From contig JAMCRT010000030.1 of NCBI GenBank assembly GCA_023380695.1, positions 3,978 through 67,977 of the forward strand: DNA of 64,000 bases. Reading direction: 5' to 3'. Every line of letters starts with the position of its first letter. Position 1 is the stretch's first letter. The DNA is from Patescibacteria group bacterium (GTDB lineage Bacteria; Patescibacteriota; Dojkabacteria; JAKAPS01; JAJZLI01). Below, in pieces: positions 4,563-59,548 of this stretch. The notes under the pieces were generated by a model, which searched no databases, was not told the DNA's origin, and saw only the letters and a program-made list of their open reading frames with translations. The position numbers and the translations under genes were made by a program.

Positions 4563-5940
4563 TAGTACTATGGAAAATGAAAATATACCATCAGCATTTA
4601 CTGAAAATATAATAAATAACCAAAATATAGAAAAGAAAAGAAAAAGACTATATATCATTTTTATTGTTATATTTGCTCTAATAATAATAATTGGAGTTTT
4701 TGCATTTCTCTACATAGGAGGATACATAAAACAAAAAACAGTAGTCCCAAATAAACATATCACACTTACAATGTGGGGAATAAGACAACCTCAGAGTGTA
4801 TATCAAAGTGTAATTAATGAATATGAGAAAGCAAATCCAAATGTTACAATTCAATATACACAGATCCCAGACAAATATTATTTAAGCACACTTTTCAATA
4901 AAGTGCGCTCTGGAGTTGCAGTTCCAGATATTATTACAATAGGAAACACATATCTTCCTTTATTTCAAAACTATCTTACACCAGCTCCTCAAAACATTAT
5001 AAATTTCGAAACATTTAAAAAAGAATTTTACCCTACCGCAGTAAGTGATCTTACAAATAATAGACAAATTTATGGACTACCACTAGAATATGACGGCCTT
5101 GCATTAATGTATAATAAACAAGAACTTACAGCAGCAGGATTTAGTAGGCCTTCAGAAAATTTTAATACATTTGTATCACAGATACCAAAACTTGTAGTAA
5201 AAAATAAAAATGGACAAGTTACACAAGCTGCAATAGATATAGGAACAAATACATCAAATATCTATAATGCATCAAATATCTTAACATACCTAATGTTTCT
5301 ATCTGGAACACAAATGACAACATCACACAGTGTCACCTTCGCAAATTCAGCATCAGGAACAGATGCATTGAATGTATACAACAATATAGCAAAGATATCA
5401 GGATGGAATAGCATATTTCCTTCTGCTGTATATGCATTTGCCAAAGGAGATGTAGCTATGATATTTGCGCCATCTTGGCAGATACAAAATATTCTAAATA
5501 TAAATCCATCTCTGAGTCTGGGAGTAGAAGAACCTCCTCAAATACCAGGAAAATCTGTAAACCTATCTTTGTACTTTGCAAAAGCAGTTCCAAGGGGAGC
5601 ATTGCATCCAAATAGTGCATGGAAATTTCTTGTATATCTTTCATCTAAAAATTCACTTTTAATGCTTTTTAAAAATGAACTGTCTGCAGGAGAAAAGATG
5701 GGAGAGACATTCCCAAGAATAGATATGGCAAACCTTGCATTAAATTACCCATACATGCAGGCTTTTACAGGAATGGCTCCTACTTCAAAATCTTGGCACA
5801 TAGGAGATTATATAGCAGTATCAAATATTTTTGATCAAGTGATTGAAGGTAAAATTACTCTAGTCCAGGCTCAAAGTGAAGTACTCTCAATATTAGTAAA
5901 AATTGCAAATGGGACATATTCTATCCCTCCAGGAGAATAA
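4552..5940 (+). CDS. Membrane-anchored extracellular solute-binding protein-like (SBP family 1-like)
   Basis: N-terminal TM helix. Then LTMWGIRQP...NPNVTIQYTQIP...PDIITIGNTYLP and IYGLPLEYDGLALMYNKQELTAAGF resemble family-1 sugar SBPs. Confidence 0.5.
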   Translation: MVYDSTMENENIPSAFTENIINNQNIEKKRKRLYIIFIVIFALIIIIGVFAFLYIGGYIKQKTVVPNKHITLTMWGIRQPQSVYQSVINEYEKANPNVTIQYTQIPDKYYLSTLFNKVRSGVAVPDIITIGNTYLPLFQNYLTPAPQNIINFETFKKEFYPTAVSDLTNNRQIYGLPLEYDGLALMYNKQELTAAGFSRPSENFNTFVSQIPKLVVKNKNGQVTQAAIDIGTNTSNIYNASNILTYLMFLSGTQMTTSHSVTFANSASGTDALNVYNNIAKISGWNSIFPSAVYAFAKGDVAMIFAPSWQIQNILNINPSLSLGVEEPPQIPGKSVNLSLYFAKAVPRGALHPNSAWKFLVYLSSKNSLLMLFKNELSAGEKMGETFPRIDMANLALNYPYMQAFTGMAPTSKSWHIGDYIAVSNIFDQVIEGKITLVQAQSEVLSILVKIANGTYSIPPGE

Positions 5941-7612
5941 ATATATGGATATAAAGGAACTGTTAATAGAAAATAATTATCTTACACCACAACAATATGA
6001 AGCTTTAGAACAAAAAGCTAAACAAATTTCAAGCTCAATAGATGAACTTCTAATATCTCAAAATATAATAACAGAAGATCAATTAGGCGCTTTGATTGAA
6101 AAGAAATACTCTATTCCTTTTATCAATCTAAGTAATGTAGCAATAAATCCGGAAATAATAAAAATAATACCTGAAAAAACCTCCCTTACAAAAAAAATAG
6201 TAGCATTTGAAAAAACAGTATCTACTCTAAAAATTGGAATGGTAAACCCAAGAGATATAAATACAATAGAATTTATAAAGAAAGGTACAGGATATAATAT
6301 TGACCCATACTATATAACAGAAAAATCATTCTATGAAGCATTAAAATTTTATAAAACTTCAATAAAGGAAGAATTAAAAGATTTAATAGAAAAAACAACT
6401 AAAGATGTAAAAAATATTGGGGAGAATGACACAGAAGCACTGCCAATAATAAAAATAACAGACAAGATTTTTGAATATGCAAATACAATGGGAGCATCAG
6501 ATATACACATAGAACCTCAAGAAAAAGATGCAATAATTAGATACAGAATAGACGGTATATTACATGATCAAGCTACCCTTTCTACACATATATATCAGGC
6601 AGTAATTGCAAGAATAAAAATACTGGCAAATTTAAAAATTGATGAACATAGACTTCCTCAAGATGGAAGATTTAAAACAAAAATAAATGATCTTGATATA
6701 TCTTTTAGAGTCTCTATTATGCCTGTATATTATGGAGAAGTAGTGGTGGCAAGATTGCTTGAAAGTAGTGCCAAGGAATACTCTTTAGATGTCCTAGGTT
6801 TCACAGATAGAGATCTTAGTGTTGTATCAGACTCTATAAAGAAAACTGTTGGAATGATACTAGTTACAGGACCCACAGGCTCTGGAAAAAGTACAACTTT
6901 GTACACAATGCTATCTTTAGTCAATAATCCTGAAGTTAATATTGATACAATAGAAGATCCAATTGAATATAGCATGACAAGAATAAATCAAACTCAAATA
7001 GCTCCACAAATTGGACTTACATTTGCATCAGGTCTTAGAGCATTTCTAAGACAAGACCCTGATATTTTGATGGTAGGAGAAATACGAGACAATGAGACTG
7101 CAGATATTGCAGTAAATGCTGCAATGACAGGACATCTTGTATTATCAACATTACACACAAACAATGCAATTGGGGCAATACCAAGACTCCTAGATATGGG
7201 AGTAGAACCATTTCTTGTATCATCAACTCTAAACCTTATTATTGCGCAAAGGTTAGTTAGGAAACTTTGTAATTCATGTAAAGAAAAATATACTTTGGAT
7301 AAGAAATTACTGGCAGTACTAAAATCACAAATGACAAAAATGGGTATATCTATAAACTTTGATGTAAAAAACCTATTTAAAGCTAAAGGATGTCAGTACT
7401 GTTCAAATGGATATAAAGGAAGAATAGGAATATATGAGGTTATAGAGGTTGATGATATAATCAAGGGAATGATATCAAGAAATGAGAACATAAATGAAAT
7501 AGAAAAAATTGCAAAGAAAAATGGAATGACATTGATGATGGAAGATGGAATTAAAAAAGCAATGAATGGCATTACCTCAATTGAAGAAGTACTACGAGTT
7601 ACTAAAGAATAA
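5903..7612 (+). CDS. pilB: Type IV pilus assembly ATPase (GspE/PilB family)
   Basis: N-terminal GspII_E-like domain. Walker A motif GPTGSGKSTTLYTML. Conserved Asp/His boxes. C-terminal CxxC...CxxC tetracysteine. Confidence 0.9.
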   Translation: MQMGHILSLQENKYMDIKELLIENNYLTPQQYEALEQKAKQISSSIDELLISQNIITEDQLGALIEKKYSIPFINLSNVAINPEIIKIIPEKTSLTKKIVAFEKTVSTLKIGMVNPRDINTIEFIKKGTGYNIDPYYITEKSFYEALKFYKTSIKEELKDLIEKTTKDVKNIGENDTEALPIIKITDKIFEYANTMGASDIHIEPQEKDAIIRYRIDGILHDQATLSTHIYQAVIARIKILANLKIDEHRLPQDGRFKTKINDLDISFRVSIMPVYYGEVVVARLLESSAKEYSLDVLGFTDRDLSVVSDSIKKTVGMILVTGPTGSGKSTTLYTMLSLVNNPEVNIDTIEDPIEYSMTRINQTQIAPQIGLTFASGLRAFLRQDPDILMVGEIRDNETADIAVNAAMTGHLVLSTLHTNNAIGAIPRLLDMGVEPFLVSSTLNLIIAQRLVRKLCNSCKEKYTLDKKLLAVLKSQMTKMGISINFDVKNLFKAKGCQYCSNGYKGRIGIYEVIEVDDIIKGMISRNENINEIEKIAKKNGMTLMMEDGIKKAMNGITSIEEVLRVTKE

Positions 7613-44885: not shown

Positions 44886-45245
44886 ATGATAAAAAACAAA
44901 GAAGAGATAACAGAATATTTATCTTCAATTCCACCTTATTGTGAAAAATGTGGAACAATGTATAACAAAGATAAGGTTGAAGTTATTGATAAAAATCAAA
45001 ATATGACAATTATTTACATAATGTGTGAAAATTGTAAAACAAAAAATGTCTTCTATGTAGTAAAACCTATGAACTTTGTTAGTAGGGCAAATTTAATAGT
45101 AGACCTTGATATGGAAGAAATAAAAAAATTTGCAGGATCAAGAAAAATAGACTCTAATGATATATTAAATGTCTTTGATCTTTTATCCACTAAGAAAGCT
45201 AAAAACTCAAAGGATTTTTTAAAAATTATTAATAGTAATGTTTAA
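44886..45245 (+). CDS. Zinc-ribbon hypothetical protein
   Basis: CEKCG...CENCK pair. Confidence 0.35.
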   Translation: MIKNKEEITEYLSSIPPYCEKCGTMYNKDKVEVIDKNQNMTIIYIMCENCKTKNVFYVVKPMNFVSRANLIVDLDMEEIKKFAGSRKIDSNDILNVFDLLSTKKAKNSKDFLKIINSNV

Positions 45246-45504
45246 AAAAATATCTGTAAATAAAATATCCTTAATACAAAATGAAATAGAAATAAAAAAA
45301 ATATTAAACAGATATTTTTTAAAACACCTTAAAGAAGATTTTGATGAATTTATTATATTTAAAAATTTTAGTAATAACACCTTAAGCCTTATAATTAAAG
45401 AACCAACACTTGCTCAATATATAAATCTTGATAAAAAAAATATATTAAATATTCTTAATAAAAAATTTGAAATTTCTGATATAAAAATTAAAGTTGGAAA
45501 TTAA
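45238..45504 (+). CDS. DUF721 (DciA-like) small protein. Tentative.
   Basis: Its size and C-terminal pattern (...LSLIIKEPTLAQYINLDKKNILNILNKKF...IKIKVG) fit DUF721. It sits next to dnaN. Confidence 0.25.
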   Translation: MFKKISVNKISLIQNEIEIKKILNRYFLKHLKEDFDEFIIFKNFSNNTLSLIIKEPTLAQYINLDKKNILNILNKKFEISDIKIKVGN

Positions 45505-46638
45505 TTATCTCTCATATAATGGCATTATTAAATATGTATAATTACCAAGGTTTTTATCTATAATTTTAGATACTTTTCTAGATTCTGAACTGTTTAATTC
45601 AATTGAAATTTTTTCACCATCGCTGTGGTTTAAAAAATCCATTATATAATTTGCATTAAAATTAACACTTATATCTTTACCTTCAATTTTTGTTTTTATA
45701 GATGAATTTAGATCTCCAACTTCTTTTAATCCAGAATTAAATTCTACTTTATTTTCAATTGAATTAAACAGTTCAGAATCTATAGATATTTCTTTAAATT
45801 TAAAAGGTGTTGAAAGTTTTAAAATATTTTTTAAGTCCTCCCTTTTAATTTCAAATGATGTTGAATAGAATTCTGGAAATATTTTTTTGTAATCTGGATA
45901 TTTTCCTTGTATAATTCTTGATATAAATTTTATATTTTCTATTTCAAAAAGTATTTGATTTCCAGAAATCATATATATATACATAGATACATTATCTTCA
46001 AAATTTTTAGTTTTTATAATATCTGAAATATTATCAAGAGCTTCTTTTGAAATAACTAGATTGTCTATAGAAGATTTTATATCTTCGCTTTCTATTGATA
46101 TACTGGCTAATCTAAAACCATTAATTCCAATAAAGTTTATATTTTTTTCGTCAAATTCCATTAAAACACCTGTTAAAATAGGTCTTGCTTTATCTTTGGA
46201 TGTTGCAAAAGATACTTTATCTATAGCAAAAGATAAAGCATTTGGATTTATTTTTATAAAATAATCTGTATCCTTGTCTCTATCAGGAATATCTGGATAT
46301 TCATCTGTTGGAATTGTATTTAAACTAATTTCATTTTTTTTGTCTTTTATATAAAGAGTGTTGTCTTGTAATAATATATTTATAATACTAGATTTTAAAT
46401 TTGCTATTATTTCGTAGAAATTTTTTAAATTTATTGTGCATTCACCTTTTTCTATAACCTCTATACCTACAATAGTAATTGCACTCTGTTCTAAATTTGT
46501 ACTTTTAATTACTAGTTTTTTCCCATCCACTAAAAGTAGTGCATTATTTAAAATAGGAATAGATGTTCTAACAGGAACTGTTTTTATATTTAAACTTAAA
46601 GCCTCAAGTAAGTTTTCTCTTTTTATTCTAATATTCAT
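45505..46638 (-). CDS. dnaN: DNA polymerase III beta sliding clamp
   Basis: MNIRIKRENLLEALSLNIKTVPVRTSIPILNNALLLV. Three-domain length. Downstream of dnaA. Confidence 0.9.
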   Translation of the reverse strand: MNIRIKRENLLEALSLNIKTVPVRTSIPILNNALLLVDGKKLVIKSTNLEQSAITIVGIEVIEKGECTINLKNFYEIIANLKSSIINILLQDNTLYIKDKKNEISLNTIPTDEYPDIPDRDKDTDYFIKINPNALSFAIDKVSFATSKDKARPILTGVLMEFDEKNINFIGINGFRLASISIESEDIKSSIDNLVISKEALDNISDIIKTKNFEDNVSMYIYMISGNQILFEIENIKFISRIIQGKYPDYKKIFPEFYSTSFEIKREDLKNILKLSTPFKFKEISIDSELFNSIENKVEFNSGLKEVGDLNSSIKTKIEGKDISVNFNANYIMDFLNHSDGEKISIELNSSESRKVSKIIDKNLGNYTYLIMPLYER

Positions 46639-46917: not shown

Positions 46918-48252
46918 CTATTGTAAAGAACTTCGTATTTCATAAATTTGATTTTTTAGAGCATAATCATCATTTATCATTTTTTCTATTTTATCTACTG
47001 CATACATTACTGTTGTATGATCTTTTCTTTTTAAAAGACTTGCTACATCTGTATAGGGAAGATTTAAATCTACTCTTAAAAGATACATAGCTACCTGTCT
47101 TGGCATAACCACTTTATTTGTTCTTCTTTCTCCCCTTATTTCTTTTATTGATATACCAAATTTTTCACATATTGTATTTATAACATCTTGGGGTTTTATT
47201 CTTTTTATAGTTTTTTTTATCTGTATTCCTAAAATATCTTGTATTTCACTAAATCCCAGTTTTTTTTGTAAAGAATTTTGTATTGCTTCTATTTTTGTTA
47301 AAATTCCTTCAAGTTCTCTTACATTGGATCCAAAATTCTCAGATATAAAATTTATTATATCTTTATCAAATGTTATGTTTTTTTCTTCACATTTTTTATT
47401 TAAAATTGCAGTTTTTAGTTCTATATCTGGAACTCCAATGTCAGCAACCATTCCACCTTCAAATCTAGATACTAATCTTTCTTCTAAATTTTCTATATCT
47501 CTTGGGTGTCTGTCTGAGGCTAATATTATTTGCTTATTTGCTTGATGAAGAGAATTAAATGTGTGGAAAAACTCTTCTTGAGTTCCTTTTTTACCAGATA
47601 TAAATTGTATATCATCAATTATTAAAACATCTTTATCTCTGTATTTTTTCCTAAATTTATCTGAAGAACCATTCTTAATAGACTCTATTAGTTCTCCTAG
47701 AAATGTCTCTGAAGATAAATAAACTACAGAATAACCCTTATTCTTATCTTCTATGGCATTTCCTATGGCTTGTAGTAAGTGGGTTTTTCCAAGACCAACA
47801 CCTCCAAATATAAAGAGAGGGTTGTATATCATTCCAGGTTTCTCAACTACTGCAATAGAAGCTGCATGTGCAAGTCTGTTTGAGGAACCGACAACAAAAT
47901 TAGAGAATAGGTATTTTTTATTTAGATTTGAGGTTTGTTTTTTATCTGTATTGTCTGTTTCTTTTGTATATTCAAATATTGGAGATATGTCATCATCTTC
48001 TAGTTTTTGTATAATTGAAAAATTGATATCAATGGGTTCTCCTGAGGCATCTTGAAGTGCATTTCTTACAGTATTTAAATAGTTGTTTTGAATATAGTCT
48101 ACTATAAATGAATTCTGACATTCTATATTTGCAACCCCATCTTTAATTTCTTTTAAATTTAATTTTGAAAACCAAACTTTAAAACTCTTTTCAGGAACCT
48201 TCAGTTGTATTTTGTCAGTTGCTATTTTCCAAACAGAGTTGATGTTGTCCAT
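46918..48252 (-). CDS. dnaA: Chromosomal replication initiator DnaA
   Basis: LFIFGGVGLGKTHLLQAIGN is the Walker A motif. The C-terminal HTH block ...DHTTVMYAVDKIE is present. Confidence 0.95.
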   Translation of the reverse strand: MDNINSVWKIATDKIQLKVPEKSFKVWFSKLNLKEIKDGVANIECQNSFIVDYIQNNYLNTVRNALQDASGEPIDINFSIIQKLEDDDISPIFEYTKETDNTDKKQTSNLNKKYLFSNFVVGSSNRLAHAASIAVVEKPGMIYNPLFIFGGVGLGKTHLLQAIGNAIEDKNKGYSVVYLSSETFLGELIESIKNGSSDKFRKKYRDKDVLIIDDIQFISGKKGTQEEFFHTFNSLHQANKQIILASDRHPRDIENLEERLVSRFEGGMVADIGVPDIELKTAILNKKCEEKNITFDKDIINFISENFGSNVRELEGILTKIEAIQNSLQKKLGFSEIQDILGIQIKKTIKRIKPQDVINTICEKFGISIKEIRGERRTNKVVMPRQVAMYLLRVDLNLPYTDVASLLKRKDHTTVMYAVDKIEKMINDDYALKNQIYEIRSSLQ

Positions 48253-48324
48253 AAATGAAGTAAATCAAAATTATTAATATTAAAAATTTTTTGGGACAAT
48301 TTAGTGATTTTTATAATAACAAAT

Positions 48325-48333
48325 TGTGGATAA
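48325..48333. promoter_or_regulatory. Perfect DnaA box (TGTGGATAA = reverse complement of TTATCCACA) in the dnaA upstream region
   Basis: Exact 9-mer in ...aacaaattgtggataactttt..., about 70 bp upstream of the dnaA start. Confidence 0.6.
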
Positions 48334-48456
48334 CTTTTCAATTATTTGATTAAATGTCGTATAATAACAATATATTTTGTATGGCATCTTTATTAAGTGA
48401 ATAAGCACAACCTAGAGTGCAATTATTCAATTAACTGGAGAGATGTCCCCGATTTA

Positions 48457-49101
48457 TTATAAAATGGCATTAACACTATCTGAAGAGTCTTCAAGCTTAG
48501 CTTCATCTATAACTTTATTTAAGTGAGTTTTTGTCATAGTTTTTAATTTTTTTGAAGGTATTTTCTCTACCCAGTTGAACAACCCGTTATAATCAAAATT
48601 TGATGGCAATGTTAACTCAACCAATGAAACATGGCGAGACCCAAGAACCGAGAGCAGATAAATTGTGTCGAATAGTGCTTTTTCCTTTGTTGCTAAACGT
48701 ACTCCATTTGTTTCAATAAATCCTCCATAGAGTTCTTTTGTAATATGATAAATGTGGAAAGTACCTAATGCAGTAGGTATTTTTTGAGCACGATCTAAAG
48801 ATATAACATGGATTTCTTTGGGAATTTGTTCAATCATATCATGCCTTGATAAGGCTGTCCAAAAAGATCCATAGGCACTATATGGAGCGGTAAGATATGG
48901 GGCAACAATAAGTGGATCCCTTATTGTGCTAATTGCCCACAATCCCCTTTTTATTTTTGTAACAACTCCAGAGTCTACTAGGGTTAACATAGTCTGGGAT
49001 GCAGCTGGTAGGGTTTTTTTTAAAACTAAAGCTACCTCAGTAGTTGTGACTATCGGTTTTTTAACTTGCGCTAGACGACCCAACGACATTATAGAATTCA
49101 T
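48457..49101 (-). CDS. AbiEi-like antitoxin/transcriptional regulator (COG5340-type winged-HTH N-terminus)
   Basis: KKPIVTTTEVALVLKKTLPAASQTMLTLVDSGVVTKIKRGLWAI is the AbiEi_4-type N-terminal domain. TAATG overlap with the upstream gene. Confidence 0.65.
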   Translation of the reverse strand: MNSIMSLGRLAQVKKPIVTTTEVALVLKKTLPAASQTMLTLVDSGVVTKIKRGLWAISTIRDPLIVAPYLTAPYSAYGSFWTALSRHDMIEQIPKEIHVISLDRAQKIPTALGTFHIYHITKELYGGFIETNGVRLATKEKALFDTIYLLSVLGSRHVSLVELTLPSNFDYNGLFNWVEKIPSKKLKTMTKTHLNKVIDEAKLEDSSDSVNAIL

Positions 49102-49919
49102 TATTTATCCTCCTTTTGGATTTTGATCTTTTTAATTTTATTAAATTTGTTTGAATTCTTATTTTTATGTATATTATTCATACGATTTATGACAAATTCA
49201 TGCATCCTTTCCCATGACTTTATAGAGTCATATGTTATTCTAAAATCATCTTTTAAAAAAGGGATTACCTGTTCTTTGAAATCTTCATAAGTTAGATTCT
49301 CTACTCTTGATAAGGCCTCTAATATATCTTTCTGTTTTAATATAGTGAGGTGACTTTCTGTTTTTCTGAATAATATCTCTAAATCAAAAATGTCTCTAGC
49401 CTTTGTTTCATTTCTTCTTGCTAGTGCCATAATTTTTTGGTCAATCATTGCATCTAAATTATATCTTTGCAGTAAGTATGGAGTAATGCCATATTGCCCA
49501 ACAATGCTTTCGGGAATATCTATTGTATCAAAACCATAGTCACTATGACGACCAGAAAATTCTATTTTAGTTCTAATTTCAACATCAGAGTTAGTTAAAA
49601 CTAATCCTAATTTCCAGCGATGAGTAGTTGTAGTCTGTTTTGGTTTACTAATATTTACAATGGAAATATTAGCACTATTAAGAGTACTAATAAGTACATT
49701 ACTAACTAAAACCTGACCAACAATTTTTTCTAGCTTTAATCCTTCATCTTTGATTAAATCTAGCTCAATGTCATTAGAATACCTAGGACTATTAAAATAA
49801 TACCTAAGATTAGCACCACCTTTAAGTACGTAATTTTTTGGATTATACTTATAAACCAAAACCGATAAAAATGTTAAATGGAACCGTTCTATAATTTGTG
49901 GTTTTGACGTTTCATTCAT
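49101..49919 (-). CDS. AbiEii/AbiGii-family nucleotidyltransferase toxin (DUF1814)
   Basis: YVLKGGANLRYYFNSPRYSNDIELDL is the PF08843 signature (KGGTaL...RfSeDlD). Confidence 0.7.
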   Translation of the reverse strand: MNETSKPQIIERFHLTFLSVLVYKYNPKNYVLKGGANLRYYFNSPRYSNDIELDLIKDEGLKLEKIVGQVLVSNVLISTLNSANISIVNISKPKQTTTTHRWKLGLVLTNSDVEIRTKIEFSGRHSDYGFDTIDIPESIVGQYGITPYLLQRYNLDAMIDQKIMALARRNETKARDIFDLEILFRKTESHLTILKQKDILEALSRVENLTYEDFKEQVIPFLKDDFRITYDSIKSWERMHEFVINRMNNIHKNKNSNKFNKIKKIKIQKEDK

Positions 49920-50001
49920 AATATATAACTGTACTATAAATTAAATTATAATGCAACTATATGTATCGTCAATACGGACTGAAATATGTTACAATTGATT
50001 A

Positions 50002-50559
50002 ATGAAAAACGAAGGAAGATCTTCTATAAAAATACTTTTAATTGCTGTTATAGTAATAGTTATTCTTGCGTTAATTGTGTTTTTAAATATTCAAACAGGA
50101 AGAAAGGCTTATAACGTAATAAATCCTGGTGGTAGGATTAATGATGCAAATAACCGGTCAAGGGTATCTAATATTAAGGCAATATTTGATGCTCTACAGA
50201 TGTATTATTCCAATAATGGTACATACCCTGCAGGTTTAAATAAACTTCCATCTCCCCTTATAACAAATGCCCCATATGGTTATTCTGTTACTGGATCTAC
50301 AATTGGCGTACCTAATTGTGTTTCAGGTTCAGGAACAATACCTAATGCTACAGTTACAGTTTCTTCGTCTTGCACAAAGCTTACAGCAGGCTCTGTGATA
50401 TATAAAGAACTCTCCAAATATATAAGTGTTATTCCAACGGGGAATTACTATTTAGTTGAAAATAGTACAGGAAACAAAGTTGTAGTATTTGCAACTGGAA
50501 TGAGGCAAGGAATAACATCCGATACTGAAGGTTATCCAGTAGCCTGGTATTATAACTAA
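50002..50559 (+). CDS. Pilin paralog with a corrupted prepilin motif (MKNEGRSSIKILL instead of G/FTLIE). Mosaic of the two downstream pilins.
   Basis: The N-terminal 100 nt are most like the 50643 gene. The C-terminal ~280 nt are ~88% identical to the 51242 gene. Confidence 0.55.
   Translation: MKNEGRSSIKILLIAVIVIVILALIVFLNIQTGRKAYNVINPGGRINDANNRSRVSNIKAIFDALQMYYSNNGTYPAGLNKLPSPLITNAPYGYSVTGSTIGVPNCVSGSGTIPNATVTVSSSCTKLTAGSVIYKELSKYISVIPTGNYYLVENSTGNKVVVFATGMRQGITSDTEGYPVAWYYN
50278..50559. repeat. Repeat of about 282 bp shared with 51497-51778 (pilin C-terminal coding segment)
   Basis: Near-identical runs such as ggttattctgttac(t/c)ggatctacaattgg(c/a)gtacctaattgtgtttcaggttcaggaacaatacctaatgctacagttacagtttcttc. 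Confidence 0.8.
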
Positions 50560-50642
50560 ATATATCTAACACAAAATGTTTCTGTAACAATGTTTTTATA
50601 GAACACTTTTACTTCTTTTATTTATTTGCTATAAATTAATTA

Positions 50643-54452: not shown

Positions 54453-55109
54453 ATGAATCTTAGAGCATATTATTATCAAAAATATGGAAATGAATTTGAT
54501 GTATTTGCCCATTTTATAAATACAAATGGACTAGAAAGTGACTTTTTGGAGCTGTTTGAAGTATCAAGAGATTATTTGAAAGATAGCCTAGATTTTGTTT
54601 TGTATGATTATTTTTTTTCAGCAATAGATTTTTTTTATTCAAATAGTTCTGATATAAAATATGATTTTCTTTTCTTTAAAAAAATAATAGATGAGAAGTT
54701 TATTGAGTTTTGTATGTCAGATGAAGGGAAAGAGATAATTGATGAGACACATCTATATTTTGGAGGGAAGAGTATAGATATATTCGATGTTATTTATAAT
54801 AGTAGAGAACATTTTGAAAATTCCGATTATCCTTCTGTTGTTACAAATCTAGAATATTTCAAATTTCTAGATAAATATTCAGATATAAAATATATAAAGG
54901 AGGTAAAAATTCTATCAATGCTTAGAACATTTATTGACAATGGGGGTTTTGGTGGAGAATTTTTCTCTCCATTTAGCAAAGATATGCAAAAATATACAGA
55001 CATTATTATAAATGGAGATTTTAGAGAAATGGATCAAAGAGTTTTCAGAAGTAATATTGAAGAATTTAGAGGAATTTTAGAAATAGAAGATATAGGGGTA
55101 TATGAATAA
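54453..55109 (+). CDS. Hypothetical acidic cytoplasmic protein
   Basis: No TM helices. Rich in D/E/F/Y. Confidence 0.35.
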   Translation: MNLRAYYYQKYGNEFDVFAHFINTNGLESDFLELFEVSRDYLKDSLDFVLYDYFFSAIDFFYSNSSDIKYDFLFFKKIIDEKFIEFCMSDEGKEIIDETHLYFGGKSIDIFDVIYNSREHFENSDYPSVVTNLEYFKFLDKYSDIKYIKEVKILSMLRTFIDNGGFGGEFFSPFSKDMQKYTDIIINGDFREMDQRVFRSNIEEFRGILEIEDIGVYE

Positions 55110-57835
55110 TGGATATAAATACTGCGGTTAGCACATATTGTGACCAATACTATACAAAAGAAGCTCTTTTTAGACTTTTGCGTACTAATAAAATAGATCC
55201 TGGTAATATAACAATTTCTGATGACGAGTTAAATATACTAGTCTCTACAGATCAATATGCAAGATTTGTTACACTGCAAATTGCAGAAAATCTTAAAGCA
55301 AGATTTACTGCAAATAAAAGTACTGTATATAGACAGAGATATCTTAACAATGAGGCAGATTTGCTTTCTAAGGCTATAGCCCCATTTATTGCATCAAGCT
55401 ATATTCCAGATGAAAGAAGGGAAGGTAGAGTAACTGGCATTAACGGCGTACATACAAATCTTAGGGCAAGAGGAAAGATGCTGGAGACTGCAATTGACTA
55501 TTGCCTTACAGTGTATCATGAACATGGGTATATGCCTCAATTAGATCAAACTTTGAAGCCTGTAGGAGCTATTCTTCCATCTGGATTTTCTAGAACCGGG
55601 AGTATTGATATAAGAGGGGGGAACGTTGACTCTGTTTCTTTACAAGATTTGCATTCTGTAATAAAGGAAGTCGCATGGAATGCTGGAATAAGGGCTGGAG
55701 TAAAAAGTCTTACAAAAAAACAAAAAATAGCAAGATTACAGTCTAAGTATGGAATATCTTCTGATGAGGCAGAAAGAATTTATGAAAAATTTTTGGAAGA
55801 GTTTAGTTATATAAATATACTTCAAAAAGATAATGGGAAAAGTTATGAGAGACCTTTACTTGAAAGACACGGAATCTACCCAAGACTATATCTTTGGCAA
55901 TATATATTAAATGATACTAGGGCAAAAAGAAAGGGGTCTCTGTTAGATATTCCACATACATGGAGAATGGCAGCAAAAATAGGGTTTACTTCTGCTATAT
56001 CCTCTGGTCGTTGGGGAAATGTGAGAGACGCAAGTGCATATAGAGACACAATTTTTGGAAAGATTTTCGAACACAAAAAAATTGAATATATGGGAGCTGT
56101 GATGAGTTTTGTTGCCAAAGAAGAGGAAAGAACTCTTCCACTAGTTGTAAGTAGAGAGCGTAAAAGAGCTCTTAAAGGAAGAAGGTTGTGGGGTGCTGAT
56201 AAAACTAACCCATATTTATATTCCGACTATATTGACTCTCAAGTTTTCATTAAAGCAAATAGTAAAAAGATTTCTGATAGATTAGAAGAAACGGTGTCTG
56301 AGAGAAATTCTGTATTAAAATGGTTTCAGAAAACAAAAAATGCAAAAGCAATAAAGGCATATAAAAAGCCTCCTAGTAAGAAAAGTAAAAAAAGAAGAGG
56401 ATTAAATTTTTTAGATTTAATTTTGGCTGTTCCTGCATTAGTTATAGATGCAATAACTTTTCTTGCTACAGATGCTGCTTTAGCTGGAGTAAGTGTTTTA
56501 GGCAAATTAGGAATTGTTAGTGAAGATAGTTTTTTAAGAACTATTTTTTCAGGAAATATGGAAGGAGGATTGTGGGATAAAATTCTTCTTTCATGGGATG
56601 GAATGAAATTTACATTTTCTGGGCTTAAATTTGTATTAAAAGATTCAATTGTGGGGGCAATACCTGGGGCTATAGTGGCAGTTCTTTCAGGGAGTCCATT
56701 GCTTGGTGGAATTGTATCTTTTACAATGTTTGCTCCAAAATTCTTTGGAGACTTTACACAAATGTTTGCAATGTCAGGGCCTGCAGGTGATATAGTTACA
56801 AAAATTGTAGAGGATTTTGGAGAAAAAAGTCTTTCAGGTGGAGAGATTTTGGTAAAATCACTTGGTTCTGGGGTATATATTGGGGCCCCTTTATTTATAC
56901 TGTCTGCACTTTTTGGCCTTCCTATAGGAACTGCAGCTCTTATTACTGTGGGGGTTGTTGGGGTAAGGGCAGCAGATCTTGCTATCTTTGAGAAAGTTTT
57001 AAGTCCAAGATTTATCGACGCAGGTGCCATAGATGCATCTACCGCTCAGGAGGTTTTATTTAAATCAAAATATCTTCTTAATTTTGGTACTCCTAGTCTT
57101 GGACTAGTAATTGCAGGTGCCGTGACAGGGAATATACCTTTATTAATTTTAGGTGGTGCAGGGTTTACAACATCTGCAGTTTCAGATTTCTTTAGAAATT
57201 CTTTGTTTGACAGTATGTCTATTAAAAGTGGGACAGATTTAGTTTCTTCTATACATGGAGTTACAACATTTACGTTGGGTCCAGCAATAATAGGTGGAGC
57301 CATAGGCGGTCCAGTGGGAGCAGTAATAGGAGGAGCTATAGGAGGGGTTACTGGTATTAGCTTTACTCTATTAAAGCATACGGTTTCAGATATAGCTATA
57401 GATCCAAGAATGCGGGTATTTGCAGAAGATGAGAGCAAAATGATAGAGGCTCAAAGAAAACTTATTTCATTTAATAGAAATTCTTTTACTACTGATGCCG
57501 AGAGAGGTATTTTAAGAAACTTTGATCCACGAACAGGAGTAGACGGGAATATTGACAGTTTATTGAGAAGTAAAGGATATGATTTTAAAATACAGGATTT
57601 GAGAGATTGGGGATTAAATGATGCTGATATTGAAAGGTTGTTTAGAGGTAGGGCTACTTTCTCAGGGACAGTTATAGGGGTGAAAAATTTTAACTTTGAA
57701 CTGAAATCATTAAAGGAGAATGTAGAAGCAGTAAGGGGAGAATTTTTAAGGGATTTTGTTAATGAAGATAAACTTGCAACGGATTTGGGAAAGGGAACTT
57801 CAGCTACAGCTCCCATATATTCAATTTTTTTGTAA
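55109..57835 (+). CDS. Large (908 aa) protein: soluble N-terminal domain of about 420 aa followed by a glycine-zipper-rich multi-TM region
   Basis: Residues 420-720 are full of GxxxG/AxxxG arrays (e.g. GGAIGGPVGAVIGGAIGGVTG). I recognise no catalytic motif. Confidence 0.45.
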   Translation: MDINTAVSTYCDQYYTKEALFRLLRTNKIDPGNITISDDELNILVSTDQYARFVTLQIAENLKARFTANKSTVYRQRYLNNEADLLSKAIAPFIASSYIPDERREGRVTGINGVHTNLRARGKMLETAIDYCLTVYHEHGYMPQLDQTLKPVGAILPSGFSRTGSIDIRGGNVDSVSLQDLHSVIKEVAWNAGIRAGVKSLTKKQKIARLQSKYGISSDEAERIYEKFLEEFSYINILQKDNGKSYERPLLERHGIYPRLYLWQYILNDTRAKRKGSLLDIPHTWRMAAKIGFTSAISSGRWGNVRDASAYRDTIFGKIFEHKKIEYMGAVMSFVAKEEERTLPLVVSRERKRALKGRRLWGADKTNPYLYSDYIDSQVFIKANSKKISDRLEETVSERNSVLKWFQKTKNAKAIKAYKKPPSKKSKKRRGLNFLDLILAVPALVIDAITFLATDAALAGVSVLGKLGIVSEDSFLRTIFSGNMEGGLWDKILLSWDGMKFTFSGLKFVLKDSIVGAIPGAIVAVLSGSPLLGGIVSFTMFAPKFFGDFTQMFAMSGPAGDIVTKIVEDFGEKSLSGGEILVKSLGSGVYIGAPLFILSALFGLPIGTAALITVGVVGVRAADLAIFEKVLSPRFIDAGAIDASTAQEVLFKSKYLLNFGTPSLGLVIAGAVTGNIPLLILGGAGFTTSAVSDFFRNSLFDSMSIKSGTDLVSSIHGVTTFTLGPAIIGGAIGGPVGAVIGGAIGGVTGISFTLLKHTVSDIAIDPRMRVFAEDESKMIEAQRKLISFNRNSFTTDAERGILRNFDPRTGVDGNIDSLLRSKGYDFKIQDLRDWGLNDADIERLFRGRATFSGTVIGVKNFNFELKSLKENVEAVRGEFLRDFVNEDKLATDLGKGTSATAPIYSIFL

Positions 57836-57865
57836 AGAGAAATTCCAGGATACAGAGACTTAAAG

Positions 57866-59548
57866 TTGGGTGATGCAGGAAATGTAAACGAACTAAGGAA
57901 TATAGATTTATCAAAATATTTTGAAGGGTCTAAGTTTGAATTGAATTTAAAATTTTTAGAGCATCTAACTTTAAGTGATATTGCCAGTGAAGAGGGATTA
58001 GTCGCAAAATTAGCGGATTTGAGGAATGTGGATCCAGGGAGATTAGTTGATATACAAAACTTTTTTACAGAGAGAGGGCTAGAGGGCGGAATAGATTTCA
58101 CTAACAATGCTAGGATTGCAAGAGCTCTTGGCAATGTAAATATAGCAGAGCTTTCAAAGGAAGGGATTTTGAATGATTTAGTAATAAAGTCTGGAGATTT
58201 AACGGGTAGCATAGAGGAGCTAACAGGGTTTGATATAAGGGCTGCAGGTCTTAGTGCAAAAGTTTTGCAAGGAGCTCCTTGGTCAATATCAAAAATTCCT
58301 GCATTAATGAGATCTGATATAAAGCTTCCTATACCTGGAATGACACACGCAACATTTGCAGATATATCTCCAGCTATGAACTCAGGATTTATTGCTGGAA
58401 TTGGGTTAAGTCTTGTTGGTGTATCTCCCGTGATTGCGGTGGCTACAGGTGTGGGAGTTATGGGTGCAAGACTGGTTCTTTCTAGTATTTATAGGAGTCC
58501 AGAGACTAGTTTGCCGATAGGTGCTATTGGAGAAGGAGGCAAAGCATTACTAGAGGCTTTTTCTCACAGTATTAACGTAGGAATGGTTACTTTTGTAGTT
58601 GCAGATCTTTTACTTCATAGTATTCCTGTTGCTGGAATGGTAGCCGCTGGTGTAACTGCAGGATATACAGCATTAAGATTTATATTGAAAGGTAAAGGTT
58701 GGTTTAAAGATGGGGGCGGAATTATTAAGGGTATAGGGGCTGCAAAGGCGGACTTTCTTGGAAAATTAGGTGTTCCAGATTGGGCAATTAAAATTTTTTC
58801 ATTAAAAGGTGCATTTGATGTTGGTATGGTAATACAGCTTGATGACTCTTTGATGAATCCTGCCAAATTTATATCTACACTTGGAACATTCACACTTCCT
58901 GCCATTATAAGTTCATGGGGTACGTTAATTTTTGGGTTTGCAGGAGCATACGGTTTAGCGGCGCTTATACTTGGAGCAGGATTCGGGCTTGCAACGGCCG
59001 GTTTGGGGTTAGGGATACTGGTGGTAGGATATGGAATAGATTGGTTAGTAAAAGGTATTACAGGATTTGATATTGGTCATTGGATTTTAGGTTGGATAAA
59101 AACAGGAATATCTGATGTGTTTTCATGGTTTGGAAATCATGCTATGGCTCCAATCTCTTGGGGTTTTGATATCCTAATTACTATGATGCTTTTAATCTTT
59201 AGGACAGATTTTGATATAGATGAGTTTGTGCGTACAATTGTAACTACCGTTGTTATTGTTGCTATATTTATGAATATTTTTGGAGGGGGTGCTGCTTCAG
59301 GAGGTACAAATAGCAATACTTCAAATATTGCAACAAACAATCATACAAAGTCTGGAACTGTTGGGTTTCTAGTGTCCCCATATTCTGGAAAAATTGTAAA
59401 TATAGAACAAAATAGCAAGATTTTGGCAGATACTGTATATATAAAGAATTCAGAAGGAGAAGTAAGTGTTCATAATATATATAACCCATATTTGTATATT
59501 GGTGAACATATAACTAAAGGTTCATTTATTGGGAATACTGTAAAATGA
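57866..59548 (+). CDS. Glycine-zipper membrane protein (560 aa) with a C-terminal half-M23/lipoyl-like beta domain
   Basis: FGFAGAYGLAALILGAGFGLATAGLGLGILVVGYG. C-terminus YSGKIVNIEQNSKILADTVYIKNSEGEVSVHNIYNPYLYIGEHITKGSFIGNTVK. Confidence 0.45.
   Translation: MGDAGNVNELRNIDLSKYFEGSKFELNLKFLEHLTLSDIASEEGLVAKLADLRNVDPGRLVDIQNFFTERGLEGGIDFTNNARIARALGNVNIAELSKEGILNDLVIKSGDLTGSIEELTGFDIRAAGLSAKVLQGAPWSISKIPALMRSDIKLPIPGMTHATFADISPAMNSGFIAGIGLSLVGVSPVIAVATGVGVMGARLVLSSIYRSPETSLPIGAIGEGGKALLEAFSHSINVGMVTFVVADLLLHSIPVAGMVAAGVTAGYTALRFILKGKGWFKDGGGIIKGIGAAKADFLGKLGVPDWAIKIFSLKGAFDVGMVIQLDDSLMNPAKFISTLGTFTLPAIISSWGTLIFGFAGAYGLAALILGAGFGLATAGLGLGILVVGYGIDWLVKGITGFDIGHWILGWIKTGISDVFSWFGNHAMAPISWGFDILITMMLLIFRTDFDIDEFVRTIVTTVVIVAIFMNIFGGGAASGGTNSNTSNIATNNHTKSGTVGFLVSPYSGKIVNIEQNSKILADTVYIKNSEGEVSVHNIYNPYLYIGEHITKGSFIGNTVK

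Follow-up and report, generated by a model that had tools for sequence, protein, structure and literature searches.

A toxin-first AbiE-family gene pair beside dnaA in a Patescibacteria genome, carried on a lineage-specific segment

We found that a two-gene module beside dnaA in the window, the whole 64-kb stretch of DNA analyzed here, is very probably a horizontally acquired AbiE-family toxin-antitoxin or abortive-infection module, for which we infer toxicity and phage defense. Its toxin-first gene order is normal for its subfamily, in which that order is fixed, and its adjacency to dnaA is lineage-specific. The position next to dnaA and oriC looks incidental, an accident of insertion. The genes concerned are the following.

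46918..48252, minus strand: dnaA (Bac_DnaA E 1.3e-68), neighbor of the pair and running in the same direction
48457..49101, minus strand: abiEi, 214 aa, predicted two-domain antitoxin and winged-HTH regulator
49101..49919, minus strand: abiEii, 272 aa, predicted DUF1814 nucleotidyltransferase toxin

The earlier note on this DNA had identified the pair as DUF1814/AbiEii and AbiEi proteins, and both HMMs and predicted folds confirmed this. The 272-aa protein matched Pfam PF08843 AbiEii above the cut-off (E 2.4e-15, 57.6 bits; cut-off 22.5) as well as the PADLOC AbiEii model (E 7.8e-20), and the best Foldseek matches of its AlphaFold model (pLDDT 91) were JHP933 (4O8S, 1.2e-8) and MenT3/TglT (2.7e-8). 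Profile and fold thus both place it among the DUF1814 nucleotidyltransferases of polymerase-beta fold. The other Pfam family that had been named, AbiEi_4, stayed below threshold for the 214-aa protein (E 0.076, 13.6 bits; threshold 25), as did NCBIfam TAA_AbiEi (E 2e-8, 34 bits; cut-off 150). The best PADLOC model reached E 9.8e-23 over residues 13-195, and by fold the top PDB match of the AlphaFold model (pLDDT 92) was the S. agalactiae AbiEi antitoxin 6Y8Q (E 5e-6; full-length Foldseek match, probability 1.0). Only the fold search recovered 6Y8Q; when AbiEi was compared with PDB sequences, as a single sequence or as a profile, nothing meaningful emerged. PADLOC and fold together identify a two-domain AbiEi (COG5340) with an N-terminal winged HTH and a C-terminal neutralizing domain.

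abiEii and abiEi lie next to each other on one strand as a bicistronic operon of the kind known from AbiE and DUF1814-COG5340 systems. The abiEii stop TAA (49103-49101) and the abiEi ATG (49101-49099) share one base, so the junction reads TAATG, as had been claimed from the sequence. A GGAGG Shine-Dalgarno lies 7 nt 5' of the abiEi ATG and abiEii is without one; abiEi is translationally coupled to abiEii through TAATG. The pair had also been said to end about 200 bp from dnaA, and the spacer (48253-48456) measures 204 bp.

We assessed gene order across 85 homologous loci, comprising 80 from GTDB and five close Patescibacteria loci, among which L013-L016 are copies of one cassette. AbiEi lies directly 3' of AbiEii in 84 of the 85 (79/80 in GTDB), and the remaining locus is truncated where its contig stops. 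No more than a few tens of bases separate AbiEii from the start of the AbiEi homologue 3' of it on the same strand, and RefSeq-annotated examples have the same toxin-first order. The downstream antitoxin is often labelled 'hypothetical protein' in public annotation. The best-known arrangement of AbiE puts the antitoxin first (Dy et al. 2014, PMC3985639), in agreement with the earlier note, and the window pair does not have the regulator/antitoxin gene before the nucleotidyltransferase gene as described there. However, the reversed order is no oddity of this locus, as had been suggested: it is invariant in the subfamily, and earlier work (bioRxiv 10.64898/2026.01.19.700257, section 12) had reported it for RlegTA and SdenTA, which combine a DUF1814 toxin with a COG5340-type antitoxin, as well as for SanaTA, where the antitoxin resembles COG5340 only distantly. 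These three pairs were validated by shotgun cloning (Sberro et al. 2013) and, compared by description, resemble the window pair in having a DUF1814 nucleotidyltransferase toxin first and an AbiEi-like antitoxin downstream. RlegA (205 aa) is also close in size to the window AbiEi (214 aa), and for these pairs neutralization is predicted via a conserved antitoxin loop and a Ser/Thr phospho-acceptor (section 12). The three come from Proteobacteria, whereas the window pair is in Patescibacteria, and no Rhizobium or Shewanella records were among the matches in the plasmid collection.

The homologues are patchily distributed across phyla at about 40-45% identity, in Actinomycetota, a Saccharibacteria genome, Limnocylindria (Chloroflexota) and a Myxococcales MAG, with Actinomycetota as the nearest wider relatives of the window pair. 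Only 6 homologues were found in the plasmid collection and none in the phage collection. Another Patescibacteria genome carries the closest homologous cassette (72% and 79% amino acid identity), there flanked by thrS and infC, and dnaA was absent from the flanks of all 85 homologous loci.

Similar to the pair in the window, AbiE of Lactococcus lactis and Streptococcus agalactiae (PMC3985639) combines the same two families, motifs I-IV, a two-domain antitoxin and an overlapping two-gene operon. Its gene order is opposite, the window AbiEi is only 14-16% identical by structural alignment and misses the AbiEi_4 and TAA_AbiEi cut-offs, and the window pair differs further in that the second catalytic Asp is Glu and its promoter has no evident paired inverted repeats. 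MenAT of Mycobacterium tuberculosis (MenT3/TglT Rv1045, MenA3/TakA Rv1044) has the DUF1814 fold in common (Foldseek E ~3e-8, TM 0.42-0.47), and MenT3 shares with the window AbiEii a Ser-x-Asp-x-Asp/Glu active-site strand with Ser at the phospho-acceptor position. In MenAT3, however, the antitoxin gene is first, and MenT toxins are larger (~290 aa) and 14-16% identical to the window protein. The closest solved structure is JHP933 of Helicobacter pylori (PDB 4O8S / 4OK0; profile E 1e-8, fold E 1.2e-8, TM 0.54-0.62), although it is only about 21% identical to the window AbiEii.

We then compared the oriC flanks with those of relatives, which were found via DnaA homologues from a protein search; scanning GTDB for exact DnaA peptides yielded none. 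The features of the inserted DNA and its border are given below.

48313..48341, minus strand: ancestral dnaA promoter-like block TTGAAA-17-TATTAT with a perfect DnaA box in its spacer, outside the abiE insertion
48342..50572: lineage-specific segment of 2,231 bp, standing where the sister lineage L098 has 97 bp, defined by blastn breakpoints and synteny
48490..49956, minus strand: cassette core by blastn, with 79% and 74% nucleotide identity to the toxin-first pairs L013 and L017, two other Patescibacteria loci
50002..50559, plus strand: extra pilin-like gene, 185 aa, private to the window lineage

Five related lineages, with DnaA proteins 94, 86, 83, 61 and 61% identical, have the same synteny (giant gene-trmD-trx-pilin-pilin divergent from dnaA-dnaN) without the abiE pair. 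Their pilin-dnaA spacer is only about 120-200 bp, or about 930 bp in L102, and no AbiE remnants were detected in the relatives, including the L102 spacer (tblastn E > 0.4). The blastn breakpoints fall at window positions 48341 and 50573; homology with relatives begins exactly at 48341, and the private segment stops exactly at the -35 of the conserved dnaA promoter. Besides abiEii-abiEi and 115 bp of novel spacer, the segment includes a chimeric pilin gene. That 185-aa gene joins a 5' end derived from the 174-aa pilin gene to a 3' end derived from the 178-aa one, and the prepilin motif G|FTLIE is replaced by G-RSSIK. The insertion bears no integrase, transposase or target-site duplication. In sample ERZ27237466 (L007/L012) the contig breaks between abiEi and dnaA; this was considered as an 'empty-site' variant and rejected because the break, at ~48418-48422, lies inside the lineage-specific spacer and not at the homology junction 48341.

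The pair is therefore missing from the same site in every relative examined, and is accessory rather than conserved. The chance that it is a conserved housekeeping pair of the clade, non-toxic and merely AbiE-like, is close to nil. The earlier note had named this as the reading that would overturn its own, and no point in its favor was found; the five lineages that lack the pair at the syntenic site and the patchy cross-phylum distribution both argue against it.

The DnaA box TTATCCACA at 48325-48333 (minus strand) is one of only two perfect copies in the 64 kb, with box-like matches overall at chance level (22 found vs 25.6 expected). The earlier note had placed this box in a region shared by dnaA and the pair; the box is present, but it belongs to the ancestral dnaA promoter block outside the inserted DNA. 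Even in relatives whose DnaA is only 61% identical, the -35 and box (TTGAAAAGTTATCCACAAT) stay near-invariant, while the -10-like hexamer varies. The cumulative GC-skew minimum at ~49-51 kb indicates that the locus is origin-proximal. DnaA boxes with at most two mismatches number 6 in the dnaA-dnaN spacer and 2 upstream of dnaA, and since clustering is weak everywhere, oriC is not pinned to either spacer. Rfam gave no matches in the window or in L102.

49945..49972, minus strand: putative abiE promoter TTGACG-16-TATAAT, a consensus match only (11/12)

This candidate is the best sigma-70-like match in 46.5-50.7 kb, where promoter-like sites overall are at chance level. Cassette homology begins at 49956, and the -10 together with ~37 bp before the abiEii ATG is conserved with the two closest cassettes (TTGCATTATA..TTAATT block), giving a conserved block of 30-40 bp upstream of abiEii. 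No convincing inverted-repeat operator and no clear repeat pair was found in the 82-bp abiE promoter region; the short inverted and direct repeats in 48200-50100 are many but weak, as is typical of AT-rich DNA. No copy of the conserved block occurs in the dnaA upstream region 48253-48456.

These observations bear on whether the module is coupled to replication initiation, with AbiEi regulating dnaA or abiE read-through tying DnaA supply to the toxin-antitoxin state. The operon is co-directional with dnaA, ends 204 bp away and is inserted precisely up to the dnaA -35. No terminator-like site was found between abiEi and dnaA or anywhere in 46.5-50.7 kb, which is weak evidence at 29% GC, so some transcriptional read-through into dnaA may occur. 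We nevertheless regard such coupling as very unlikely: the conserved promoter and DnaA-box block was left intact, all relatives manage without the module, the abiEii-upstream block has no copy before dnaA, and homologous cassettes are never beside dnaA elsewhere.

The accidental placement also has to be weighed against selfish stabilization, in which the pair would act as an addiction module retaining an origin-proximal island that includes the extra pilin gene. AbiE systems stabilize plasmids and ICEs (PMC3985639, PMC11062541), the pair was co-inserted with the lineage-specific chimeric pilin gene, and the origin region of other relatives also accepts accessory DNA. Examples there are an AAA_14/DUF4143 gene and a DDE transposase, both lying downstream of dnaN. 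However, the segment is only 2.2 kb without mobility genes, apart from the pair it carries just a pilin paralogue in which the prepilin cleavage motif has been lost, and a D52E change in the toxin (see below) speaks against strong addiction; we consider this explanation improbable. Neither a regulatory link nor origin stabilization, the two ideas first raised for the dnaA/oriC adjacency, was borne out by a pair absent from relatives, with cassettes found elsewhere, the box outside the insertion and no copy of the upstream block.

For the preferred reading, an AbiE module captured by chance at this site, a mechanism can be proposed by analogy with S. agalactiae AbiE and M. tuberculosis MenAT. 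AbiEii would act as a polymerase-beta-fold nucleotidyltransferase that adds nucleotides to tRNA acceptor ends, blocking translation and arresting growth. AbiEi would bind it through a conserved loop (IEQIP, residues 90-94), which is invariant in the subfamily alignment, and would drive auto-phosphorylation of AbiEii on the Ser two residues before the first catalytic Asp (S48), switching the toxin off. At the sequence level, S48 and the IEQIP loop provide the Ser/Thr phospho-acceptor and antitoxin loop of AbiE and MenAT systems (type VII-like). S48 matches by spacing, and not by residue-level structural superposition, the phospho-acceptors T65 of AbiEii and S78 of MenT3 (bioRxiv 10.64898/2026.01.19.700257, section 5; PDB entry titles); the loop is likewise equated with D85-E86-I87 by position and not by such superposition. 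AbiEi is probably also the repressor of the operon, acting through its N-terminal winged HTH on the promoter upstream of abiEii. With the toxin gene first, translation would supply the antitoxin excess, given the strong GGAGG and coupled TAATG of abiEi and the lack of a Shine-Dalgarno at abiEii. Insertion took place in the window lineage only, into a short pilin-dnaA spacer just upstream of an intact dnaA promoter. Toxicity, target, phosphorylation-based neutralization, autoregulation and phage defense are all thus predicted from these analogues.

The active site of the toxin carries one unusual change. Motifs I-IV, the nucleotidyltransferase motifs by which AbiE toxins are recognized (Dy et al. 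2014, PMC3985639), are G34 G35; R46, S48, D50, E52; K162..R169; and R175 D176..D179. The whole set hG[G/S]...R..DhD, K..R, +DxxD is present except that the second motif-II Asp is Glu52. Across 121 homologues G34, G35, R46, S48, E120, K162, R169, R175, D176 and D179 are invariant and D50 is kept in 119, while residue 52 is Asp in 120 and Glu solely in the window protein. Glu52 is not a sequencing error, since 10 contigs from independent samples encode the identical protein.

S. agalactiae AbiEii loses its toxicity through the conservative changes D67E and D69E (Dy et al. 2014, PMC3985639), and in light of D69E the D52E toxin may be attenuated. The module would then be a harmless remnant or a regulator only, with its toxin disarmed or weakened. 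A mild excess of lineage-specific changes (27 vs 14; chi-square 4.1) is consistent with this. General decay of the toxin gene was rejected, however, with deviations at conserved columns (5) not above those in the two closest homologues (6 each). Both frames are intact, all other motif residues are kept, and the antitoxin is fully conserved, as expected with a still-dangerous toxin. The polymerase-beta superfamily pattern of Aravind and Koonin (hG[GS]x9-13Dh[DE]h) reportedly tolerates Asp or Glu at this position. On balance, attenuation is a possibility that we hold tentatively and think somewhat unlikely. Domestication, in which D52E disarmed the toxin and the AbiEi-repressed promoter or AbiEi itself modulates dnaA transcription, appears extremely improbable; if true, replication initiation in a minimal-genome symbiont would respond to the toxin-antitoxin or phage-stress state.

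The locus itself has little value beyond annotation. It shows that toxin-first AbiE pairs are a large and coherent subfamily that circulates in reduced Patescibacteria genomes. Proximity to dnaA and oriC alone is no proof of a replication link, a question that comparison with sister lineages settles quickly. The natural catalytic Asp-to-Glu change provides a modest case, open to experiment, in which capture by the chromosome may have been followed by attenuation of the toxin.

The AbiE-type pair lies in low-GC DNA (about 29%), with the following genes around it (window coordinates):

49919..49101, minus strand: abiEii, a 272-aa ORF
49101..48457, minus strand: abiEi, a 214-aa ORF
48252..46918, minus strand: dnaA, next after abiEi
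46638..45505, minus strand: dnaN, next after dnaA
50002-50559, plus strand: a chimeric pilin-like gene of 185 aa, private to the window lineage

It was noted that abiEii and abiEi overlap by one base, the stop and start reading TAATG, and that GGAGG stands 7 nt before the abiEi ATG. The 204-bp spacer between abiEi and dnaA contains a perfect DnaA box (TTATCCACA, 48325-48333), and the minimum of the cumulative GC skew falls at about 49-51 kb. The earlier note had described the ORFs, the overlap and the box in this spacer accurately. An 88-aa gene convergent with dnaN (45238-45504, plus strand) may encode DciA, a helicase-loader-related protein, beside dnaA-dnaN, because its orthologue in a relative (L099) gives a weak Pfam DciA match (PF05258).

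The AbiEii/AbiEi assignment, made before any database search, held. The Pfam check proposed with it succeeded for the 272-aa protein (PF08843 AbiEii, E 2.4e-15) and missed the AbiEi_4 threshold for the 214-aa protein (E 0.076), which also fell below the NCBIfam TAA_AbiEi cut-off (34 bits vs 150). PADLOC AbiEi models matched the latter almost end to end (E 9.8e-23), and several PADLOC AbiEii models matched the former (best 7.8e-20). AlphaFold models made from family alignments were confident (pLDDT 92 for the antitoxin, 91 for the toxin). The sole significant PDB matches of the antitoxin model were to the S. agalactiae AbiEi antitoxin 6Y8Q (E 5e-6, probability 1.0), while the toxin fold matched JHP933 (E 1.2e-8) and M. 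tuberculosis MenT3/TglT (about 3e-8), with JHP933 also reached by the toxin family profile in sequence (1e-8). From these family-model and fold matches, the two proteins are therefore an AbiEii/AbiEi pair.

The gene order is reversed relative to the description of Dy et al. 2014, because the regulator gene is stated there to come ahead of the nucleotidyltransferase gene in AbiE-type pairs (PMC3985639). This part of the earlier claim stands; the order is general among homologues, and no local oddity. A GTDB scan with the family alignment returned 80 loci of AbiEii homologues, mostly in Solirubrobacterales, Acidimicrobiales and other Actinomycetota, together with one Saccharibacteria genome, one Limnocylindria (Chloroflexota) MAG and one Myxococcales MAG. 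An AbiEi homologue (35-50% identical to the window's) follows a few tens of bases downstream on the same strand in 79 of these, and the lone exception is ended by a contig boundary. Five close Patescibacteria loci (L013-L017, two distinct cassettes) are also toxin-first, as are RefSeq-annotated examples, in which the antitoxin is labeled 'hypothetical protein'. Toxin-first DUF1814 pairs with the antitoxin downstream were already known as RlegTA, SdenTA and SanaTA, all three discovered by shotgun cloning (PMC3827094).

A mechanism was drawn, by homology only, from Dy et al. 2014, the MenT work (PMC7450476) and a 2026 AbiE preprint (bioRxiv 10.64898/2026.01.19.700257). By analogy, AbiEii would modify tRNA acceptor ends and stop translation, and AbiEi would bind it through a conserved loop and induce auto-phosphorylation of a Ser/Thr two residues ahead of the first catalytic Asp. 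In the window AbiEii, the predicted phospho-acceptor position holds a serine, S48, invariant in the subfamily (strand R46-Y-S48-N-D50-I-E52). The most conserved antitoxin stretch is IEQIP (residues 90-94), which the AlphaFold model places in a loop that follows a predicted helix (80-86) and precedes a strand (96-101). By position only, it would correspond to the essential D85-E86-I87 loop of S. agalactiae AbiEi, which lies at about the same place. Upstream of abiEii stands a candidate abiE promoter, the best sigma-70-like site of the region (TTGACG-16-TATAAT); its -10 and the 30 bp after it are kept in the two closest cassettes, and no convincing inverted-repeat operator was found upstream of abiEii. 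With the toxin gene first, antitoxin excess would have to arise at translation, which agrees with abiEi having a strong Shine-Dalgarno and a coupled start and abiEii having no Shine-Dalgarno.

We found that residue 52, the second metal-binding Asp position of motif II, is Asp in 120 of 121 family members and Glu in the window protein only. Sequencing error was ruled out because 10 contigs, from independent samples, all encode this same protein without any difference. As Glu52 is unique in the family and the equivalent conservative change D69E abolished toxicity in Dy et al. 2014 (PMC3985639), the toxin may be attenuated, although this is less likely than not. General decay of abiEii was rejected (5 deviations at conserved columns vs 6 in each of the two closest homologues); a mild excess of lineage-specific changes was seen (27 vs 14). 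A second window-specific deviation, Asp68 to Gly (49716-49718), falls in an alignment column where at least 90% of family members agree.

The genomic contexts of DnaA homologues were compared across five related lineages (DnaA identity 94% in L098, 86% in L102, 83% in L099-L101, 61% in L105/L106 and 61% in L107/L108); L098 comes from a sample that also yielded one copy of the window organism. All five retain the synteny around dnaA, in which a giant gene, a 220-aa gene, a 520-aa gene, trmD, trx and two pilin genes diverge from dnaA-dnaN and the small DciA-like gene. None carries the AbiE pair in this neighborhood, and tblastn found no AbiE remnant. Against L098 (blastn, 91% nucleotide identity), breakpoints at 48341 and 50573 enclose 2,231 bp of the window in place of 97 bp, comprising abiEii-abiEi, 115 bp of novel spacer and the chimeric third pilin gene. 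That gene is similar to the 174-aa pilin gene over its 5' 120 bp and to the 178-aa pilin gene over its 3' 450 bp (84% nucleotide identity). With G-RSSIK in place of the prepilin-peptidase motif G|FTLIE, its product may not be processed as a pilin. In another Patescibacteria genome, the closest AbiE cassette is flanked by thrS and infC (amino-acid identity 72% and 79%; nucleotide identity 79% over 49956..48490), and no dnaA homologue flanks any of 85 homologous loci, so the position next to dnaA is a one-off insertion.

Similarity to the relatives picks up again precisely at the -35 of a promoter-like site (TTGAAA-17-TATTAT) whose spacer holds the DnaA box, and TTGAAAAGTTATCCACAAT forms a block that hardly varies even where DnaA is only 61% identical. 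The box therefore belongs to an ancestral dnaA promoter, presumably autoregulated, and is not 'shared' by the AbiE pair, as had been proposed. A functional link of the pair to replication was also suggested at that time; only two points favor it, that abiE is co-oriented with dnaA and that no terminator-like hairpin was found between abiEi and dnaA. Such a link is very improbable given that the ancestral promoter block is intact, the pair is missing from all relatives examined, homologous cassettes elsewhere are never near dnaA, and the conserved block ahead of abiEii does not recur upstream of dnaA. DnaA-box clustering was too weak to place oriC in either spacer.

The pilin-dnaA intergenic site is variable in several lineages, since in L102, too, the pilin gene is separated from the conserved dnaA promoter block by some 840 bp of additional DNA (5421-6262), which contains no ORF longer than 64 aa, gave no Rfam match and does not resemble the window insertion. 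Another accessory insertion in the clade's origin region is an AAA_14/DUF4143 ATPase gene just downstream of dnaN, accompanied in L108 by a DDE_Tnp_1 transposase (inserted stretches L107 8875-10008 and L108 8875-12194). Directly past the abiEi stop of the thrS-infC cassette, a short tandem or palindromic array (L013 11449-11510; unit GGATCCAAGGATCT, repeated about three times) was noted that the window lacks. The assembly of sample ERZ27237466 is interrupted between abiEi and dnaA (about 48418-48422), where two contigs (L007 end, L012 start) overlap by only 5 bp (TTGCA); this break is flanked by the two arms of a 12-nt inverted repeat (48393-48404 / 48423-48434) and does not coincide with the insertion junction. 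A giant Pfam-less gene (55109-59548, plus strand) is split by an in-frame TAA (57833-57835) into 908-aa and 560-aa ORFs, whereas contig L001 (99.6% identical) has it intact (1479 aa) with GAA at that codon. The residues just ahead of the stop differ as well (APIYSIFL vs AESSRTFLE), and either a nonsense mutation in this strain or a local difference in assembly could explain the split.

The earlier observation is confirmed, and its interpretation is supported in part. The pair belongs to the toxin-first subfamily of AbiE-family modules; a single Patescibacteria lineage acquired it, and its place upstream of the dnaA promoter looks accidental. Its only mildly unusual feature is the unique Asp-to-Glu catalytic substitution.
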